Origin: an uncultured Acidobacteriota bacterium
Lineage (GTDB): Bacteria > Acidobacteriota > Vicinamibacteria > Fen-336
Assembly: GCA_963720545.1 (NCBI GenBank)
Contig: OY970399.1
Location: forward strand, 992,001 to 1,056,000
Direction of reading: 5' to 3'
DNA: 64,000 nt
The position numbers were made by a program, and so were the translations under genes. Shown in pieces: positions 3,940-12,206 of this stretch. The notes below the pieces were generated by a model that was not told the origin of the DNA, made no database searches, and was given only the letters and a program-made list of their open reading frames with translations. The stretch's first letter is position 1. Each line of letters starts with the position of its first letter.

Positions 3940-4911
3940 ATGACCATTCTGCCGAAGGCACCCCTTGCTCTGATGGCCGCCGTGCTGTTCGCCGCATCGG
4001 CAGCCGCTGCCGCGGAACGCCAGGTGGCGGTGACCTTCGACGACCTGCCGGGTCCCGCGGCAGGACTCGTCTCACCAGATGCGGCATTCGTCTGCGACAA
4101 CACGCGCAAGCTGCTCGCCGCCTTCAAGGCGCACGGCGTGCCGGTCGTCGGCTTCGTCAACGAGAACAAGCTGAACCGCCCGGGCGAGACGGCTGAGGAC
4201 GCGGCGCTGCGCCTCGCGACGCTCGACCTGTGGCTCGACGCCGGCCTCGAGCTCGGCAACCACTCCTTCTCGCACCGCAGCCTCAACCGCACCCCTCTCG
4301 AGGAGTTCGAGGCCGACGTGGTGCGCGGCGAGACCGCCACCAAAGAGTTGCTCGCTCGCCGCGGCAAGACGCTGCGCTACTTCCGCCATCCGTTCCTGCA
4401 GGTGGGGCTCGACCTCGACAAGCGGCGCGCCTTCGAGGCGTTCCTGAAGGTGCGCGGCTACACCATCGCTCCCGTGACCATGGACAACGACGAGTACATG
4501 TACGCGTTCGTCTACGCCGACGCGCTGCGGCGCAAGGACGCGGCGCTTGCGGGAAAGGTCGCCGCCGATTACCTGCGCTACATGGACGAGACGTTTGCCT
4601 ACGCGGAGGCACTGGCGCAAAGTGTCGTTGGCCGCGACATCTGCCACACCCTGCTGCTGCACGCGAACACGCTGAACGCCGACCACTTCGGTGCGCTCGC
4701 CGATGTGCTCCAGAAGCGCGGCTACAAGTTCATCACCCTCGAGGAGGCGCTGAAGGACGGCGCCTATGCCCTGCCGGACGCGTACGTCGGCGGCTGGGGC
4801 GTCTCCTGGCTGACCCACTGGGAGCTGAGCGCCGGCCGGAAGCGCACGCCCGCGCCCGATCCGCCGCAGTGGCTCCTCAAGGCCTACGAATCGCTTAGCA
4901 TTTCGCAATGA
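3940..4911 (+). CDS. Secreted polysaccharide deacetylase family protein
   Basis: Signal peptide from ATG 3940; VAVTFDDLP, LGNHSFSH, FRHPFL and LLLH motifs. The real gene is only the 3' part of the 933-aa track ORF. Confidence 0.85.
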   Translation: MTILPKAPLALMAAVLFAASAAAAAERQVAVTFDDLPGPAAGLVSPDAAFVCDNTRKLLAAFKAHGVPVVGFVNENKLNRPGETAEDAALRLATLDLWLDAGLELGNHSFSHRSLNRTPLEEFEADVVRGETATKELLARRGKTLRYFRHPFLQVGLDLDKRRAFEAFLKVRGYTIAPVTMDNDEYMYAFVYADALRRKDAALAGKVAADYLRYMDETFAYAEALAQSVVGRDICHTLLLHANTLNADHFGALADVLQKRGYKFITLEEALKDGAYALPDAYVGGWGVSWLTHWELSAGRKRTPAPDPPQWLLKAYESLSISQ

Positions 4912-5501
4912 GCGATCCTCTCAGGCGGCGTGTCGTGGTGGGCCTCACCGGCGCCACCGGAGCCGTCTACGGCGTGCGGATCCTCGAGTCGCTGCGCGCC
5001 ATGGACTCGGTCGAGACCCATCTCGTCCTCAGCATGCCGGCGAAGCGCACGCTGGTGGAGGAAACCGACTACACCGTTCGCGACGTCGAGGAGCTGGCGG
5101 ATGTCGTCTACGACAACCGCGACATCGGCGCCGCCATCGCCAGCGGTTCGCTGCGGACCGCGGGCATGGTCATAGCACCGTGCAGCATCAAGACGGCATC
5201 GTGCCTTGCCACCGGCATCACCGACAACCTCATCACCCGGGCCGGCGACGTGGCGCTCAAGGAGCGCCGGCCGCTGGTGGTGCTGGTGCGCGAGTCGCCG
5301 CTGCACCTCGGCCACCTGCGCCAGCTCGCGGCGCTCGCCGAGATCGGCGCCGTCATCCTGCCGCCCATGCCCGCCTTCTACCCGCGCCCGAAGTCGGTGG
5401 ACGACCTCGTCAACCACACCGTGGGCCGCGCCCTCGACCACCTCGGCCTCGACCACGATCTCGTCCCCGAGTGGTCCGGCACCGGCCGGTTCCCGAAATA
5501 G
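4908..5501 (+). CDS. ubiX: Flavin prenyltransferase UbiX
   Basis: VGLTGATGA, IASGS, APCSIKT, LKERRPLV, RESPL and PPMPAFY. Confidence 0.93.
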   Translation: MSDPLRRRVVVGLTGATGAVYGVRILESLRAMDSVETHLVLSMPAKRTLVEETDYTVRDVEELADVVYDNRDIGAAIASGSLRTAGMVIAPCSIKTASCLATGITDNLITRAGDVALKERRPLVVLVRESPLHLGHLRQLAALAEIGAVILPPMPAFYPRPKSVDDLVNHTVGRALDHLGLDHDLVPEWSGTGRFPK

Positions 5502-5894
5502 TCATCGACGGATTGGCGGTCGTTCGCATCCAATCCGTCGATTCCTTTCTTGTCTTTCCCCAGGCGCTTGCGTCCGCCATCGACGGATTGGCTTTCCGTC
5601 TCCGTCCAATCCGTCGATTTCCTTTCCTTTCGTTCCCCAGGCGCTTGCGTCAATGTCCGTTCGTTGTCCGTCCCCCCAGGCGCTTGCGTCAGCGTCCGCT
5701 GCCACAGTGGCGTGCAACTCAATTGCTGCCCCGCAAGTAGCGCGGACTAAAGCCACGGGGTTTTACTCGGCGGGTTCTTCGGGCCAGCGGCAATCGCAAG
5801 GAGCCTCGGAACTTCGGGCTGACGCAAGCGCCTGGGAAACGGAAGAACGGAAATCGACGGATTGGACATGAACGACCGCCAATCCGTCGATGAC
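5501..5894. repeat. Modular intergenic repeat locus 1, with about 75-bp imperfect terminal inverted repeats
   Basis: Three ATCGACGGATTGG-N13/14-CCAATCCGTCGAT hairpins (5504-5542, 5579-5618, 5853-5891); CCCCAGGCGCTTGCGTC at 5558, 5635 and 5674, inverted at 5821-5836. Confidence 0.92.
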
Positions 5895-5895
5895 G

Positions 5896-7287
5896 TCAGG
5901 CTACCTCGGCGTGCGGCAACGCCGGGGTATCGCGGTCGTCGGGGGCCAGCTGCCAGAAGATGAGCGCGGACGCGGCGGTGATCAGGCCGACGCTCAGGAA
6001 ACTCCACTGGAAGGACGGCAGAGCGGCGAGGCCGGCCTCATGGCCGGTGCCGGTGAAGATCGCGAGCAGCAAGCTCGAGCAGGCGACGCCGAGGCTCATG
6101 GAGAGGGTCATCACCATCGACAGCAGGCTGTTGCCAGCACTTGCGTGCTGGGTGTCGAGGTCCTTGAGGGTCACGGTGTTCATGGCCGTGAACTGCAGCG
6201 AGTTGAAGGCGCCGAACAGCGAGAACTGGGCGATCCGGAGCCACTCCGCCTGGCCCGGTGAGATGAAGACGAAGCTCGCCATCGACAGGCCGACGAGCAC
6301 CGTGTTGCCCACCAGCACCTTGCGGTAGCCGAGCCGGGTGACGAGCGGCACCGCCAGCTGGCGCGCCAGCAGGCCGGCGATCGCCACGGGAATCATCGCC
6401 ATTCCCGATTGCAGCGCGTCGTAGCCGAGGCTCACCTGCAGCACCAGCGGGATGAGGAACGGCATGCCGCCGGTGCCGAGCCGCGAGAACAGGTTGCCGA
6501 GGATGCCGACGCGGAAGGTGTGGTTCGCGAACAAGCCCGGCGGGAACAGCGGATGCGGCACGCGCGTCGCGTGCAGCCAGTAGGCGACGAAGGTGGCCAT
6601 GCCGAAGATGAACATCACCAGGATGGTGGCGCGGCGCAGGCTCAGTTCGGCAAGGCCGTCGAGCGCCAGCGACACCGCCATCATGGTGAACGCGAGCATC
6701 AGGTAGCCGATCGCATCGAAGCGCGCCACCTTCAGCCGCGAGTCTTCCATGTACAGGAACGTCGCCGCGATGGCCGCCAGGCCCACCGGGATGTTGATGA
6801 GGAAGATCCAGTGCCATGACGCCACCGCCACCAGCCATCCGCCGAGCGGCGGGCCGACCAGCGGGCCGATGAGGCCCGGGATCGTCACGATCGTCATGGC
6901 GCGCAGGAACTCGCTGCGCGGCACCACGCGTATCAGCGCCAGCCGGCCCACCGGCATGAGCATCGCGCCGCCGATGCCCTGCAGCGCGCGCGACGCGACC
7001 AGCGCGCCGAGGGTCGTGGAACGGGCGCAAAGGAACGAACCGGTGGTGAACACTATGATCGCGCCGAGGAACGCCTTGCGGGTGCCGAAACGGTCGGCGA
7101 TCCAGCCCGAGGCGGGAATGACCATCGCCATCGCCAGGCCATAGGCGATGACCACCGCCTGCATGCGCAGCGGGCTCTCGCCCAGGTTGGCCGCGATCGC
7201 CGGCAGGGCGGTGTTGACGATGGTCGAGTCCAGCATCTGCATGAACGCGGCCACGGCCACGAGGCCCATCAAGGAGCGGTGTTTCAC
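5896..7287 (-). CDS. DHA2-family MFS efflux transporter (MdtD/EmrB-like)
   Basis: FMQMLDSTIVNTALP, GWIADRFG, GPLVGPPLGG and WHWIFLINIPVG; about 14 TM segments. Confidence 0.9.
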   Translation of the reverse strand: MKHRSLMGLVAVAAFMQMLDSTIVNTALPAIAANLGESPLRMQAVVIAYGLAMAMVIPASGWIADRFGTRKAFLGAIIVFTTGSFLCARSTTLGALVASRALQGIGGAMLMPVGRLALIRVVPRSEFLRAMTIVTIPGLIGPLVGPPLGGWLVAVASWHWIFLINIPVGLAAIAATFLYMEDSRLKVARFDAIGYLMLAFTMMAVSLALDGLAELSLRRATILVMFIFGMATFVAYWLHATRVPHPLFPPGLFANHTFRVGILGNLFSRLGTGGMPFLIPLVLQVSLGYDALQSGMAMIPVAIAGLLARQLAVPLVTRLGYRKVLVGNTVLVGLSMASFVFISPGQAEWLRIAQFSLFGAFNSLQFTAMNTVTLKDLDTQHASAGNSLLSMVMTLSMSLGVACSSLLLAIFTGTGHEAGLAALPSFQWSFLSVGLITAASALIFWQLAPDDRDTPALPHAEVA

Positions 7288-7293
7288 GTCAGG

Positions 7294-7923
7294 TCACTTC
7301 ATCCAGGTCCGGCGGTTCGCGTAGTACTCCGGCTTGCGCCCGCCATGCGCCTGCTTGTAGGCGAGGTAACGGCGGCGCAGCGCGTGGTAACGGGAGTTGG
7401 ACATGCCGATCTTCTGGTGCGGATGGTAGATGAGCCACTGCTCCACCTTCCAGCGATTGTCGAGCGACAGGCGCCAGTCGTAACCGCCGAGGTCGCGCAG
7501 GTCGGCGAGACCGAACCCGACCACCCGGCCGGTCTCGTCCACGTACGTGTCCATGTAGCTCCTCGCGAGCGCCTTGACCGTGGCGAACAGCGGCCGGCGG
7601 CCGGTGAGCCCGGGATCGCGCGAGCGTGCCACGGCACCCCACTTGCCGCGCTCGCGGAAGACGTAGATGACGTGGTCGAGCCGGTCCTGCGACTGGAAGC
7701 TGACGAGCAGCGGCGGGTGGCCGTGCTGTTCCAGGATGGTGGCCGCGCTGAGCGCCGCTTCGAGGCAGTGAGCGGCGCCGTGGCGCACCACCTGGCGGAA
7801 GGCGCGCTGCGTCTCGCCACGCCTTTCCCAGTTGTACGGCAGCGCCGTGAGCCAGCGCTGCACCGCCCGCGGCGTGCGCAGCGCAGCGATGAGGCGGCGC
7901 TCCCGCGCTGTGAACGGCTTCAA
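7294..7923 (-). CDS. Hypothetical protein; transglutaminase-like/vasohibin-like cysteine protease candidate
   Basis: TTG start overlapping the SPFH stop (TTGA); VQRWLTALPYN, HCLEAA, DHVI and GKWGAVARSR motifs. Confidence 0.7.
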   Translation of the reverse strand: MKPFTARERRLIAALRTPRAVQRWLTALPYNWERRGETQRAFRQVVRHGAAHCLEAALSAATILEQHGHPPLLVSFQSQDRLDHVIYVFRERGKWGAVARSRDPGLTGRRPLFATVKALARSYMDTYVDETGRVVGFGLADLRDLGGYDWRLSLDNRWKVEQWLIYHPHQKIGMSNSRYHALRRRYLAYKQAHGGRKPEYYANRRTWMK

Positions 7924-8867
7924 CGCCGCGGCAGCGGCGGTGTCTCGGATCCCTTCTGGCTGATCACTGTCATGGCCGCGGAGATCATCGAGGTGATGTC
8001 GGTGAGGTTGGCGGGGACGATGAGCGTGTTGCCGGCCTTCGCGAGGTTGCCGAAGCGCTCGATGTACTGCTCGGCGACGCGCAGCTGCACCGCCTCGAAG
8101 CCGCCCGGCTGGCCGATCGCGGCCGCCACCAGGCGGATGCCCTCGGCGGTCGCCTTCGCCACCGCCTCGATCGCGTTGGCCTCGCCGTCGGCCTCGTTGA
8201 TCTGCTGCTGGCGCTTGGCTTCGGACGCCTTGATCACCTGCTGCTTCTGGCCCTCGGCGGTGTTGATGGCGGCGTCGCGCTCGCCTTCCGAGCTGAGGAT
8301 GAGCGCGCGCTTCTCGCGCTCGGCGCGCATCTGCTTTTCCATCGCGGCGATGATGTCCTGCGGCGGCGTGATGTTCTTGATCTCGTAGCGCAGCACCTTC
8401 ACGCCCCATGCTTCCGAGGCCTTGTCCACCTCGGTGACCACCTGGGTGTTGATGTGGGTACGCTCCTCGAAGGTGCGGTCGAGGTCGATCTTGCCGATCT
8501 CGCTGCGCAGCGTCGTCTGCGCCAGCTGGATGATGGCGAAGTTGTAGTTCGAGATGCCGTAGGAGGCGCGCTCGGCGTCCATGATCTTGAGGTACAGGAT
8601 GCCGTCGATGTGCACCGTGACGTTGTCGCGGGTGATGCAGACCTGCTCGGGAATGTCGATCGCCTGTTCCTTCAGCACGTGGCGGTAGCGCACCACGTCC
8701 ATGAATGGCACCAGGATGTGCAGGCCGGCGTCGAGCACGCCCGCGAAGCGGCCGAGCCGCTCCACCACGTAGGCATGCTGCTGCGGCACGACCACCACGG
8801 TGCGGAAGAAGGCCCAGAAGACGAACAGCGCCAGGATGATGGCTACGACCACGAAACCCTCGAACAT
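7920..8867 (-). CDS. SPFH/band 7 (stomatin-like, QmcA/YbbK-type) protein
   Basis: N-terminal TM, VVERLG, ITRDNV, QTTLRSEIG, WGVKVLRYEI and QMRAEREKRA. Confidence 0.92.
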   Translation of the reverse strand: MFEGFVVVAIILALFVFWAFFRTVVVVPQQHAYVVERLGRFAGVLDAGLHILVPFMDVVRYRHVLKEQAIDIPEQVCITRDNVTVHIDGILYLKIMDAERASYGISNYNFAIIQLAQTTLRSEIGKIDLDRTFEERTHINTQVVTEVDKASEAWGVKVLRYEIKNITPPQDIIAAMEKQMRAEREKRALILSSEGERDAAINTAEGQKQQVIKASEAKRQQQINEADGEANAIEAVAKATAEGIRLVAAAIGQPGGFEAVQLRVAEQYIERFGNLAKAGNTLIVPANLTDITSMISAAMTVISQKGSETPPLPRR

Positions 8868-8889
8868 GTCGTCTCCTCGCTCGCCGATG

Positions 8890-9318
8890 TCACTCGCTGC
8901 GCACCCACAACGTCAGCCCCTCGCGCCGCACCACGCGCGTGCGCTGGCCGCGCGGCAGGGTCGCGCCGTCGCAGCGGGCCGTCCAGCTGGCGCCGCGCAG
9001 CTCCACCTTGCCCACTTCGCCGGCGCGGATCTCCTCGGTGACGATCGCCGACTCCTCCTCGATTGCATCGACCGCACCCGGCCGGCCGCCGCTGTTGAAG
9101 CGCGCCTGCAGGGGCTTGCGGAGGAAGGCGAGCGACAGGATGCTGAAGACGGAGAAGAGCAGCCACTGGACCCAGGTGGGGCCCGCGGCGCCGACCAGGG
9201 CCAGCATGCCGACGATCAGCGCGCCGATGCCGAAGAAGAGAGCCATCAGGCCGCCGGGGGCCGCCAGTTCCAACCCGAGCAGGACCAAGCCGAGCACGAG
9301 CCAGTACCACCAGACCAT
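8890..9318 (-). CDS. Short NfeD-family (YbbJ-like) membrane protein
   Basis: MVWWYWLVLGLVLLGLEL, TM helices and C-terminal GKVELRGASWTA; directly upstream of the SPFH gene. Confidence 0.85.
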   Translation of the reverse strand: MVWWYWLVLGLVLLGLELAAPGGLMALFFGIGALIVGMLALVGAAGPTWVQWLLFSVFSILSLAFLRKPLQARFNSGGRPGAVDAIEEESAIVTEEIRAGEVGKVELRGASWTARCDGATLPRGQRTRVVRREGLTLWVRSE

Positions 9319-9453: not shown

Positions 9454-9879
9454 GTGCCTGACGATCGTTCGTCGCTGCCACTTTCCCACCGCCGGGTCGT
9501 CGTCGTCGATGACGACGTCATCGTGCAACGCGTCGTCAGCCAGGCCCTGATCCACAGCGGGGCCGATGTCGAGTCCTGCGACGACGGCGCGGCGGCGCTC
9601 GCCGCCATCACCCGCCAGGTGCCCGACCTCGTGATCCTCGACATCAGCATGCCGGTGATGGGCGGCCTGGAACTGCTCGAGAAGCTGCGCGCCCGCGCCG
9701 AGACCGCCGACCTGCCGGTGGTCATCCACACCGGCTGCGCCGAGCACGAGTATCTCGAGGAGGCGCGCACCCTGCGCGCGGCTGCGGTCCTCAACAAGCC
9801 GACCCGGCCCAGCGAGGTCGTTAACACCGCGCGGCAGGTGCTGGAAGGCGCCCGCCCGCTGCTGCAAAGCGCCCGCTAG
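9454..9879 (+). CDS. Single-domain response regulator (CheY-like)
   Basis: VVVVDDD, LVILDISMP, HTG and NKP receiver motifs; start uncertain. Confidence 0.85.
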   Translation: MPDDRSSLPLSHRRVVVVDDDVIVQRVVSQALIHSGADVESCDDGAAALAAITRQVPDLVILDISMPVMGGLELLEKLRARAETADLPVVIHTGCAEHEYLEEARTLRAAAVLNKPTRPSEVVNTARQVLEGARPLLQSAR

Positions 9880-9890
9880 ACTCGCTTCTC

Positions 9891-12206
9891 ATGCCGCTGT
9901 CGCGCCCGCGAGCTGCTCTCTTTGCAGCTGCCGTCGTCGCTGTTGTCCTGGCTGCCGCCTATGCCTGGCGCAGTGGCGCGCTGGCACGCCTCGGCAGTGG
10001 CGGACGCCCGCGGAACCTGCTGCTCGTCACCATCGACACGCTGCGCGCCGACCGCCTCGGCAGCTACGGCTATGCGGCGGCGCAGACGCCGAACCTCGAT
10101 GCCCTCGCCCGCCGCGGCCTGCGCTTCACGCAGGCGACGACGGTGGTGCCGCTGACCCTGCCGGCGCATTCGTCGCTCCTCACCGGCACCTTCCCCGCCT
10201 GGCACGGCGTGCGCGACAACGGCGGCTTCTACCTGGGCGACGACCAGCTGACGCTCGCCGAGGTGCTGAAGGACAAGGGCTTCCGCACCGGCGGCTTCGT
10301 CTCGGCGTTCGTCCTCGACCGCCGCTGGGGCATCGCGCAGGGGTTCGAGCGGTTCTTCGACGACTTCGACCTCGAGAAGTTCAGCAAGGCCCCGAGCATG
10401 GACTTCATCCAGCGCCCCGGAAGCGAGACGGTCGAGCAGGCGATGGCCTGGCTCGGTGAGGACCGGGCCCGGCCTTTTTTCGCCTGGGTGCACCTCTACG
10501 ACCCGCACGCGCCCTACGAAGCTCCCGAACCGTACCGGTCGCGCTTTCCCGCGACGCTCCAGGGCGCCTACGACGCCGAGATCGCCTCGGCCGACGCAGA
10601 CGTCGGCCACCTGCTCGACGGCCTGGCGCGCCAGGGGCGGCTCGAGGACACGCTGGTGGTGGTGCTCGCCGACCACGGCGAGATGCTCGGCGAGCATGGC
10701 GAGCAGCAGCACGGCTTCTTCATCTACGACGGCGCGGTGCGCATCCCGCTGCTGATGGCGGGTCCCGGTCTCGCGCCGCGCACGATCTCCGACCAGGTGC
10801 GCATCGTCGACGTCATGCCGACGGCGCTCGAGCTGCTCGGCGTCGCGCGGCCCGCCGCGGTCCAGGGGACGAGCCTGCTGCCGCTCACCCACGGGCAGCG
10901 GCTTGGCCTGGTGGCGCACTCGGAAACCTGGTATCCGCGCTATCACTACGGCTGGAGCGAGCTGCGCTCGGTGCAGGACGGGCGCTTCAAGCTCATCGAG
11001 GCGCCGCGTCCCGAGCTCTACGATCTCGACTCGGACCGTAGCGAAGGCACCGACCTGGCGGGCGGCGATGCGGCGCGGGCGCAGTCGATGCGCGCCGCGC
11101 TCGCCGCCTTCGAAAGCCGCACCACGCGCGCCGGTGCAGCCAAGGGTCCGGCGCCGGTCGATGCCGAGACCGAGGAGAAACTGGCGGCGCTCGGCTACGT
11201 CGGCAGCGTCAGCGGCAGCCACATGAAGGACGTCGCCGGCGTGGTGCGCGGCGATCCCAAGGACAAGATCGGGCTTTACAACCTGCTGAAGAAGGCGGGG
11301 AGCGCCTCGGGCGGCGACAACCAGGACGAAGCGATAGCGCTGGTGCGCAGCGCGCTGCGCCAGGATCCCACGATCGTCGAGGGCTACATGCTGCTCGGCA
11401 ACTTCCTCAGCAAGGCGAAGCGGCTCGACGATGCGGTGGCCGCCTACAAGCAGGCGCTGGCGCTCGACCCGGAACACCAGAACGCGCTCTTCAGCCTGGC
11501 GGTCGCCTACAAGGACGGGAACCGGCTCGAGGACGCCCGCCTCGGCTTCGAGCGGGCGCGCGCGCTCGACCCGCGGAACGGCAAGGTGCTGTTCCAGCTC
11601 GCCGACCTCGCGCTGCGGCAGAAACGGCCGCAGGACGCCGAAGCCATCATTCGCGACGCGCTCGCGCGCAAGGTGGACGAGCACCGCTTCCTGCAGAAGC
11701 TCGGCGAGAGCTACATCGAGTCGAAGCGTTACGCGGAAGCGGAGAAGGCACTGAAGGAAGCGCTCGCGAAAAAGGCCGACCTGCCCGCGGCGCAGTTCGA
11801 CCTCGGCCTCGTTTACGAAGACACCGGCCGCCCCGAGATGGCGATCGTCGCCTATCGCGCCGAACTGGCGCGCGCGCCAACCGCGCACCGCGCGGCCTTC
11901 AATCTGGCCAAGCTTCTGGCGCGCAAGGGCGAACTGGCCGAGGCCACCTCCCTCTTTCGCAAGGTCGTCGAGGTCGATCCCAACTTCGGCACCGGGCGCC
12001 TGTACCTCGCCAAGGCGCTGCTCGACGCGAACGACCTGCCAGGCGCCGAAGACGAAGCGAAGAAGGGGCTCGCGCAAAACCCCGACCCGCAGATGGCGCC
12101 CCTCGGCCACTACGTCCTGGCTGACGTCTACTCGCGCCTGGGGCGCGAGCAGGAGGCGCGGCGCGAGGCGGCCTTGGCGAAGCGGCTGGAGCGGCCGGTC
12201 GACTAG
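9891..12206 (+). CDS. Sulfatase-like (alkaline phosphatase superfamily) hydrolase/transferase with C-terminal TPRs, copy 1
   Basis: N-terminal TM/signal; NLLLVTIDTLRAD, PLTLPAHSSLLTG, HLYDPH and ADHGE; TPR repeats. Confidence 0.85.
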   Translation: MPLSRPRAALFAAAVVAVVLAAAYAWRSGALARLGSGGRPRNLLLVTIDTLRADRLGSYGYAAAQTPNLDALARRGLRFTQATTVVPLTLPAHSSLLTGTFPAWHGVRDNGGFYLGDDQLTLAEVLKDKGFRTGGFVSAFVLDRRWGIAQGFERFFDDFDLEKFSKAPSMDFIQRPGSETVEQAMAWLGEDRARPFFAWVHLYDPHAPYEAPEPYRSRFPATLQGAYDAEIASADADVGHLLDGLARQGRLEDTLVVVLADHGEMLGEHGEQQHGFFIYDGAVRIPLLMAGPGLAPRTISDQVRIVDVMPTALELLGVARPAAVQGTSLLPLTHGQRLGLVAHSETWYPRYHYGWSELRSVQDGRFKLIEAPRPELYDLDSDRSEGTDLAGGDAARAQSMRAALAAFESRTTRAGAAKGPAPVDAETEEKLAALGYVGSVSGSHMKDVAGVVRGDPKDKIGLYNLLKKAGSASGGDNQDEAIALVRSALRQDPTIVEGYMLLGNFLSKAKRLDDAVAAYKQALALDPEHQNALFSLAVAYKDGNRLEDARLGFERARALDPRNGKVLFQLADLALRQKRPQDAEAIIRDALARKVDEHRFLQKLGESYIESKRYAEAEKALKEALAKKADLPAAQFDLGLVYEDTGRPEMAIVAYRAELARAPTAHRAAFNLAKLLARKGELAEATSLFRKVVEVDPNFGTGRLYLAKALLDANDLPGAEDEAKKGLAQNPDPQMAPLGHYVLADVYSRLGREQEARREAALAKRLERPVD

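Follow-up and report, generated by a model that had tools for sequence, protein, structure and literature searches.

A vasohibin-like cysteine peptidase of the CPR-C4 family encoded behind nfeD and qmcA in an uncultured acidobacterium

The peptidase gene and its immediate setting

The window analyzed here is a stretch of 64,000 nucleotides from an uncultured bacterium of the acidobacterial class Vicinamibacteria (assembly GCA_963720545.1, contig OY970399.1, positions 992,001 to 1,056,000). On its minus strand, positions 7294–7923 encode a vasohibin-like cysteine peptidase of 209 residues with a TTG start codon, which is assigned to the CPR-C4 family, and here to a subtype termed A, by homology, fold and the alignment of its catalytic residues. 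The translation of the open reading frame (ORF) is free of stops, its GC content at the three codon positions (0.68/0.49/0.91) is similar to that of the neighboring genes, and homologues make up 5903 of the 8000 candidates scored; by codon-position GC and homologues alike, the ORF is a real gene. Its close homologues carry the source labels Vicinamibacteria or Acidobacteriota, and the peptidase is single-copy in the window's genome. An earlier reading of the sequence (the original prediction) had described this ORF, the overlap of its TTG with the stop codon of an SPFH gene, and six short motifs likened to those of human vasohibin-1 (VASH1). All of these observations hold: the motifs lie in that order at residues 21–31, 52–57, 73–78, 83–86, 93–102 and 111–119, and the six counterparts given for VASH1 are all found in its PDB chain.

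The peptidase gene is the third of four consecutive genes on the minus strand in the order nfeD, SPFH, peptidase and MFS (major facilitator superfamily), the positions and annotations of the flanking genes being as originally described. The first encodes a short NfeD protein of the YbbJ/NfeD1a type (8890–9318; 142 residues) with a hydrophobic N-terminus and an OB-fold (PF01957 at residues 84–140). It is followed by a QmcA-like SPFH1a protein of 315 residues (7920–8867), which carries an N-terminal membrane anchor and the Band_7 and Band_7_C domains and whose best PDB match is Escherichia coli QmcA (8z5g, E 5.5e-59). The SPFH gene ends in a TGA that overlaps the TTG of the peptidase gene (TTGA, 7920–7923), an arrangement from which translational coupling of the two is likely, and the peptidase is probably co-transcribed with nfeD-qmcA in this genome. 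A scan for promoters and terminators returned no promoter and one terminator-like site, which lies on the opposite strand and is at chance level. An MdtD-like DHA2 transporter of the MFS (5896–7287, minus strand) starts 6 nt downstream of the peptidase stop and is followed by a convergent gene for a UbiX-like flavoprotein (4908–5501, plus strand), which serves as a syntenic anchor. The intervening stretch (5502–5890) holds imperfect repeats, seen as recurring words in the translations of spurious ORFs. On the other side of nfeD lie a stand-alone response regulator (9454–9879) and, downstream of it, a plus-strand gene (9891–12206) whose product of 771 residues joins a sulfatase domain to numerous TPR repeats.

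The original prediction had noted that NfeD is short and without a protease domain, and indeed PF01957 is its only match above the cut-off, no ClpP-like protease domain is found in it, and the window's genome contains one PF01957 match in total. A comparative study reports NfeD partners for 229 of 353 SPFH1 members, gives the combination of a short NfeD with an SPFH1a protein as the common form, and assigns the ClpP domain only to the NfeD1b form (Hinderhofer et al., PMC2636767). The window's pair is thus an ordinary ybbJ-qmcA pair. It resembles that of E. coli (NfeD1a-SPFH1a) in that the gene for a short NfeD adjoins one for a QmcA-like SPFH protein and differs in being followed by a peptidase gene, a feature seen in one bacterial family only. 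As a short NfeD is normal, there is no gap here for which a protease would be needed.

Homology, fold and active site

Comparison of the peptidase with PDB sequences by phmmer identifies CPR-C4 (E 5.2e-23, residues 2–164), and a profile built from 26 close homologues finds both CPR-C4 (E 1.4e-29) and VASH1 (E 6e-4). The Pfam Vasohibin family (PF14822) is matched at 17.3 bits (E 0.003), under its gathering cut-off of 24. NCBIfam yields nothing above cut-off, and PHROGs gives no match. In the ESM Atlas only hypothetical clusters are matched, and PF14822 is present in 13% of the members of one of them. The AlphaFold model (pLDDT, the predicted local distance difference test, 86.1; pTM, the predicted template modeling score, 0.86) is placed by Foldseek first with CPR-C4 (TM-score 0.74), then with VASH1 and VASH2 (E about 1e-6) and then with LapG. 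A VIA-align search of 48,161 chains gives the same order of resemblance: CPR-C4 (Z 22.0, root-mean-square deviation (rmsd) 2.6, 187 residues aligned), VASH2 (Z 12.8, rmsd 3.8, 158 aligned), VASH1 (Z 11.6, rmsd 4.1, 159 aligned) and LapG (Z 8.5). Peptidases take the first three places among the fold matches, and farther matches (Z 4–7.5) include transglutaminases, protein glutaminases and N-acyltransferases. A transmembrane stretch is absent (the highest hydropathy over 19 residues is 0.92), and the isoelectric point of the window protein is 10.8. Because the CPR-C4 match, the VASH1 profile match and the folds agree, the resemblance is beyond chance, and the original assignment to vasohibin-like cysteine proteases is upheld, the model matching both VASH1 and VASH2 in structure.

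The family itself is not new. Vasohibin-like proteins were described in bacteria, Acidobacteria included, and in algae, as homologues bridging the vasohibins and the transglutaminase-like proteases, within a superfamily of varied chemistry (Sanchez-Pulido and Ponting, 2016, PMC4866520); the available text of that study gives no neighborhood or substrate. CPR-C4 was later solved and shown to cleave fluorescent casein by means of a Cys-His-Leu(carbonyl) triad, and its authors, who found neither a neighborhood clue nor a natural substrate, suggest amino-acid supply as its role (Cornish et al., 2022, PMC9108980). As the family, its fold and its activity on casein were published in 2016 and 2022, the window protein adds a member. 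In the literature searched, no substrate is assigned to bacterial vasohibin-like peptidases and no link between vasohibins and SPFH proteins is made.

The residues Cys53, His84 and Leu106 align with C61, H93 and L115 of CPR-C4 (numbered with a tag offset of 12) and with C169, H204 and L226 of VASH1. A Cys-His-Ser triad had been proposed for the family in 2016 and was given in the original prediction; the third catalytic element has since been corrected to the backbone carbonyl of a leucine (L226 in VASH1; Liu et al., 2019, PMC6937246; PMC9108980). A spatial juxtaposition of cysteine, histidine and carbonyl in the window protein would follow from the fold match of the predicted model. Across 224 homologous loci, a few of which repeat the same genome, Cys53 and His84 are invariant (224 of 224, both subtypes). 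By their identity to the window protein these loci fall into two groups, 94 standing at 50% or more (subtype A) and 130 below 45% (subtype B), and in a tree of 58 rows, among which CPR-C4 is not placed, subtype B forms one clade with a support of 100/100. Within subtype A, Ser101, Arg102 and Leu106 are kept in all 94 homologues and Tyr30 in 93. The genomes searched in the window's family and its order carry subtype A or subtype B, never both, and this mutual exclusion hints at the same job for the two.

The conserved Tyr30, Ser101 and Arg102 align with Y134, S221 and R222 of VASH1. According to the structural study of VASH1, hydrogen bonds connect Y134, K168, H204, S221 and R222 in a network, and changes at K168, S221 or R222/R223 impair activity (PMC6937246); a review ties the C-terminal specificity of the enzyme to S221 and R222 (PMC8358657). 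Four of the five network residues are identical in the window protein (Y30, H84, S101 and R102), while the position of K168 is taken by His52. The VASH1 loop with K145, K146 and R148 falls into a gapped part of the alignment with no conserved counterpart; of the arginines nearby, R34 and R35 vary, R40 is kept in 83 and R43 in all 94 of the subtype-A homologues. In CPR-C4, the positions of Tyr30, Ser101 and Arg102 are occupied by Asn, Thr and Asn, and in subtype B (n = 130) the VASH1-like site has Ser in 125 and Asn instead of Arg in 124. By alignment, then, subtype A is nearer to the VASH1 site than CPR-C4 is, although K168 is replaced by His and the basic loop has no clear counterpart.

Compared with its closest structural relative (PDB 7OB6, 7OB7 and 7PJO; subfamily CP01A; Z 22, 28% identity), the window protein is of similar size, likewise stand-alone and likewise without a conserved functional neighbor. 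It differs from CPR-C4 in the three residues just named and in the tri-aspartate Zn site, which is incomplete: D83 of CPR-C4 corresponds to Ser75 (Ser in 88 of 94 subtype-A homologues), whereas D92 is kept as Asp83. This site is not required for the CPR-C4 family (PMC9108980). The window protein belongs to a separate subtype. With the tubulin tyrosine carboxypeptidases VASH1 and VASH2 (PF14822) it shares the fold and identical counterparts of C169, E171, H204, L226, Y134, S221, R222 and Y247, at an overall identity of only 16–19%. The alignment starts at residue 97 of VASH2 or 106 of VASH1 against residues 6–7 of the model, so that the N-terminal helices which wrap SVBP are missing and have no room; the substrate must be different from that of the vasohibins.

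Gene neighborhoods within and beyond the window's family

In the bacterial family to which the window belongs (f1), the peptidase is present in 45 of 59 genomes, 29 with subtype A and 16 with subtype B, and a QmcA-like orthologue (E 1e-60 or better) in 29. The order nfeD-qmcA-peptidase occurs in 20 of the 29 subtype-A genomes, the window included (18 directly, two across contig breaks); these span five of eight genera, with short or overlapping junctions that often measure a few bases. Four further genomes carry both genes apart (G002, G024, G060 and G078), and in another four, which are 75–97% complete (G018, G095, G141 and G325), the peptidase follows other upstream genes and no SPFH orthologue was found; linkage was not assigned in the remaining genome, G316. 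None of the 16 subtype-B genomes is linked, and four of these carry the orthologue elsewhere. In the tree, linked and unlinked rows are intermixed, with four changes. Genomes with and without the linkage alike have the UbiX-like gene close to the peptidase, and in three genomes with the peptidase at another place or not detected it is found close to nfeD-qmcA. Together, its distribution and the linkage pattern describe a slowly eroding syntenic block. Downstream of the peptidase, several relatives have a DJ-1/PfpI gene and a further gene of unknown function in place of the MFS gene; a gene for about 330 residues without a Pfam match (L032:1607–2608) comes after the peptidase and DJ-1/PfpI in many genomes of f1, whether or not these are linked.

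Several candidates for a closer connection between the two proteins were considered and rejected. The C-terminal tail of the SPFH protein is Pro-rich and ends in Arg, and was dropped as a substrate mark since the same tail is found in linked and unlinked copies. Programmed frameshifting or an SPFH-peptidase fusion was likewise set aside: in the window the open stretch of the peptidase frame covers 531 codons, in linked relatives only 210–381. Two SPFH fusions among 22 longer matches (P0130 and P0137) each come from a single cluster, have garbled ends that look like frameshifts and are read as assembly errors; fusions to CusF-SCO and EEP domains have the same appearance, eight of the 22 longer matches having been read. 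A search for longer forms of subtype B gave five unrelated singletons.

Outside f1, the two genes were compared in 75 genomes from other families of the class, and in none of these do they lie within 10 kb of each other, among the matches listed; they are on different contigs in 69 and at least 236 kb apart in six, and six of the 75 are cases near a contig start. The comparison comprises 132 peptidase and 95 SPFH rows, the f1 rows and 41 SPFH rows without a listed peptidase being left out, and another 54 peptidase and 41 SPFH matches fall outside those listed. Presence of the peptidase does not track that of the SPFH orthologue across families either. In f4 the orthologue is found in 23 of 27 genomes and the peptidase in one (a weak match), in f7 the figures are 25 and 10 of 51, in f12 three and zero of six, and in f11 zero and two of four.

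The usual neighbors at 80 loci from the genome collection are genes for CusF-SCO (57), EEP nuclease (49) and DUF72 (40), and the nfeD-qmcA order occurs in three. At loci of the Vicinamibacterales type (L035:5124–5996 and 56 others), the peptidase directly follows the gene for the CusF-SCO copper protein, its commonest neighbor; since that protein looks exported, the adjacency is probably synteny. In f3, the neighbor is an acyl-CoA dehydrogenase gene. Among the loci compared, no partner gene is common across lineages, and the neighbors are lineage-specific. A broad SPFH profile, by which each of the three such genes in the window's genome is recovered, detects none at 40 loci of other classes, at 12 subtype-B loci of the order or at four viral loci.

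Other kinds of SPFH gene do occur in the vicinity. A different subfamily, 20% identical to that of the window, lies 1.2–5.7 kb off with genes in between at 18 of the 80 loci, and at L104 (weakly matched) and L227 the opposite strand carries an SPFH gene at a distance of about 2.6 kb. Among 80 metagenome loci, of which only 41 reach 1.5 kb upstream, two near-identical ones (L259:3703–5702 and L260) carry a third kind of Band_7 gene whose stop overlaps the ATG of a subtype-B peptidase, followed by a convergent MFS gene. No other independent case of an SPFH gene next to the peptidase was found. A single additional case in 198 distinct flanks does not exceed chance (expected 0.16–0.30; P 0.15–0.26), as roughly estimated for genomes of some 3,700–4,600 genes.

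A homologue of the window's MFS protein is found beside the peptidase at none of the 224 loci (E 1e-5); the transporter is specific to the window's genome and not a conserved member of the locus. Of the proposed nfeD-spfh-protease-MFS operon, the order of the first three genes recurs, in f1 alone, and the association as a whole is not kept across unrelated lineages. As homologues near SPFH genes do exist, the neighborhood survey weakens the proposed functional link rather than refuting it.

Possible function and wider family

Taken together, the gene encodes a single-copy, predicted-cytoplasmic vasohibin-like peptidase that probably trims the C-terminus of an acidic protein or peptide, its position behind nfeD-qmcA being most likely an inherited gene order of f1 and not a dedicated partnership. 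By analogy with VASH1 and CPR-C4, it is very probably a thiol peptidase in which Cys53 would act as the nucleophile and His84 as the base, oriented by the carbonyl of Leu106. For carboxypeptidase action the chances appear about even. Tyr30, Ser101 and Arg102 would hold the free C-terminal carboxylate, making the enzyme an exopeptidase, and its basic surface would bind the acidic tail; this is a fair guess because subtype A keeps the Tyr/Ser/Arg set that matches VASH1, unlike CPR-C4. Of 4445 crude ORFs in the genome, one ends in an acidic tail resembling that of tubulin; it is PilZ-like by eye, the number is at chance level, and the candidate was dropped.

A number of observations weigh against this reading. 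The casein cleavage reported for CPR-C4 does not demonstrate exopeptidase action (PMC9108980), and, of the VASH1 site, K168 is replaced by His and the K145/K146/R148 loop finds no conserved counterpart. As to gene order, the recurrence of nfeD-qmcA-peptidase in most subtype-A genomes of f1, across several genera and with tight junctions, counts against inheritance alone, as do the SPFH genes of another subfamily in the vicinity of homologues (18 of the 80 loci) and the overlapping Band_7 gene of L259/L260.

One alternative is a cytoplasmic endopeptidase of broad specificity, serving protein turnover or peptide salvage instead of C-terminal trimming. It would accord with the cleavage of casein by CPR-C4 and the amino-acid supply proposed by its authors (PMC9108980), and with the DJ-1/PfpI gene nearby in part of f1. 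A single copy, an identity of 55–68% across the class and an invariant VASH-like Tyr/Ser/Arg site nevertheless fit a specific substrate better, and this explanation is unlikely.

A functional partnership with the NfeD-QmcA cage in f1, in which the peptidase cleaves QmcA or its clients and replaces the protease domain of a long NfeD, is likewise improbable. This develops the original prediction, in which the peptidase may supply the proteolysis absent from the short NfeD. In its favor stand the f1 gene order, a tree compatible with one ancestral origin followed by losses, and the overlapping Band_7 gene as one independent case. The C-terminus of QmcA is predicted to be cytoplasmic (PMC10434171), which is the compartment expected of the peptidase, and this topology would allow contact between the two. 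In the long NfeD system, PH1510 cuts its stomatin partner in the C-terminal region, and QmcA is noted to interact with FtsH (PMC4208085). The Pyrococcus pair PH1510/PH1511 (long NfeD1b/STOPP and stomatin) resembles the window in that a protease is encoded with an SPFH gene, but there a ClpP-like Ser-Lys domain is fused and cleavage was shown, whereas the window encodes a separate, predicted cysteine enzyme. Against the partnership, the genes are unlinked in all 75 genomes outside f1 (among the matches listed) and in all 16 subtype-B genomes of f1, f4 retains the orthologue nearly without the peptidase, SPFH1a is paired with a short NfeD as a standard (PMC2636767), the one extra adjacent case fits chance, and the Pro-rich, Arg-ending SPFH tail is a poor fit to a basic pocket and does not vary with linkage. 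Because the order is confined to f1 and each gene occurs without the other, a functional link to SPFH is unlikely, and the claim built on the operon is mostly not borne out, while the gene was correctly recognized as belonging to a published family.

A non-proteolytic acyl reaction on the transglutaminase-like fold (deamidation, isopeptide cleavage or acyl transfer) would suit the farther fold matches and the varied chemistry of the superfamily (PMC4866520), but is very improbable given that the three best fold matches are peptidases and that protease activity was measured for CPR-C4.

The most far-reaching version would make subtype A the counterpart of vasohibin in chemistry and fold, a dedicated C-terminal trimmer in a bacterial post-translational cycle that was recruited in f1 to the NfeD-QmcA cage to process QmcA or its clients. 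This is quite unlikely; if true, such a trimmer would give the CPR-C4 family its first natural target and constitute a new protease-SPFH pairing. A real SPFH link would likewise add a new protease partner for stomatin-like cages, which the comparative evidence makes unlikely. As for the enzyme, subtype A keeps residues tied to C-terminal recognition in VASH1 that are absent from CPR-C4, which makes it more promising than CPR-C4 as a candidate bacterial carboxypeptidase and as a guide to the origins of the tubulin detyrosinases.

The family as a whole comprises 1998 clusters at 50% identity. The peptidase is found in 196 of 301 genomes of the class and in 93 of 401 genomes of the phylum, a tally that takes in the unpublished genome G349, nearly always as one copy per genome. 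An intact vasohibin-like ORF of 202 residues with the Cys and His kept was also seen at L142:5001–5609 (and at L141 and L143) in a collection of viral contigs, amid AT-rich phage-like genes, an RtcB ligase and a glycosyl/methyltransferase gene; it could represent a family member carried by a virus. A further protein of 563 residues, P0279, combines a MYND finger (E 4e-5) with a C-terminal vasohibin-like domain and is eukaryote-like by its make-up.

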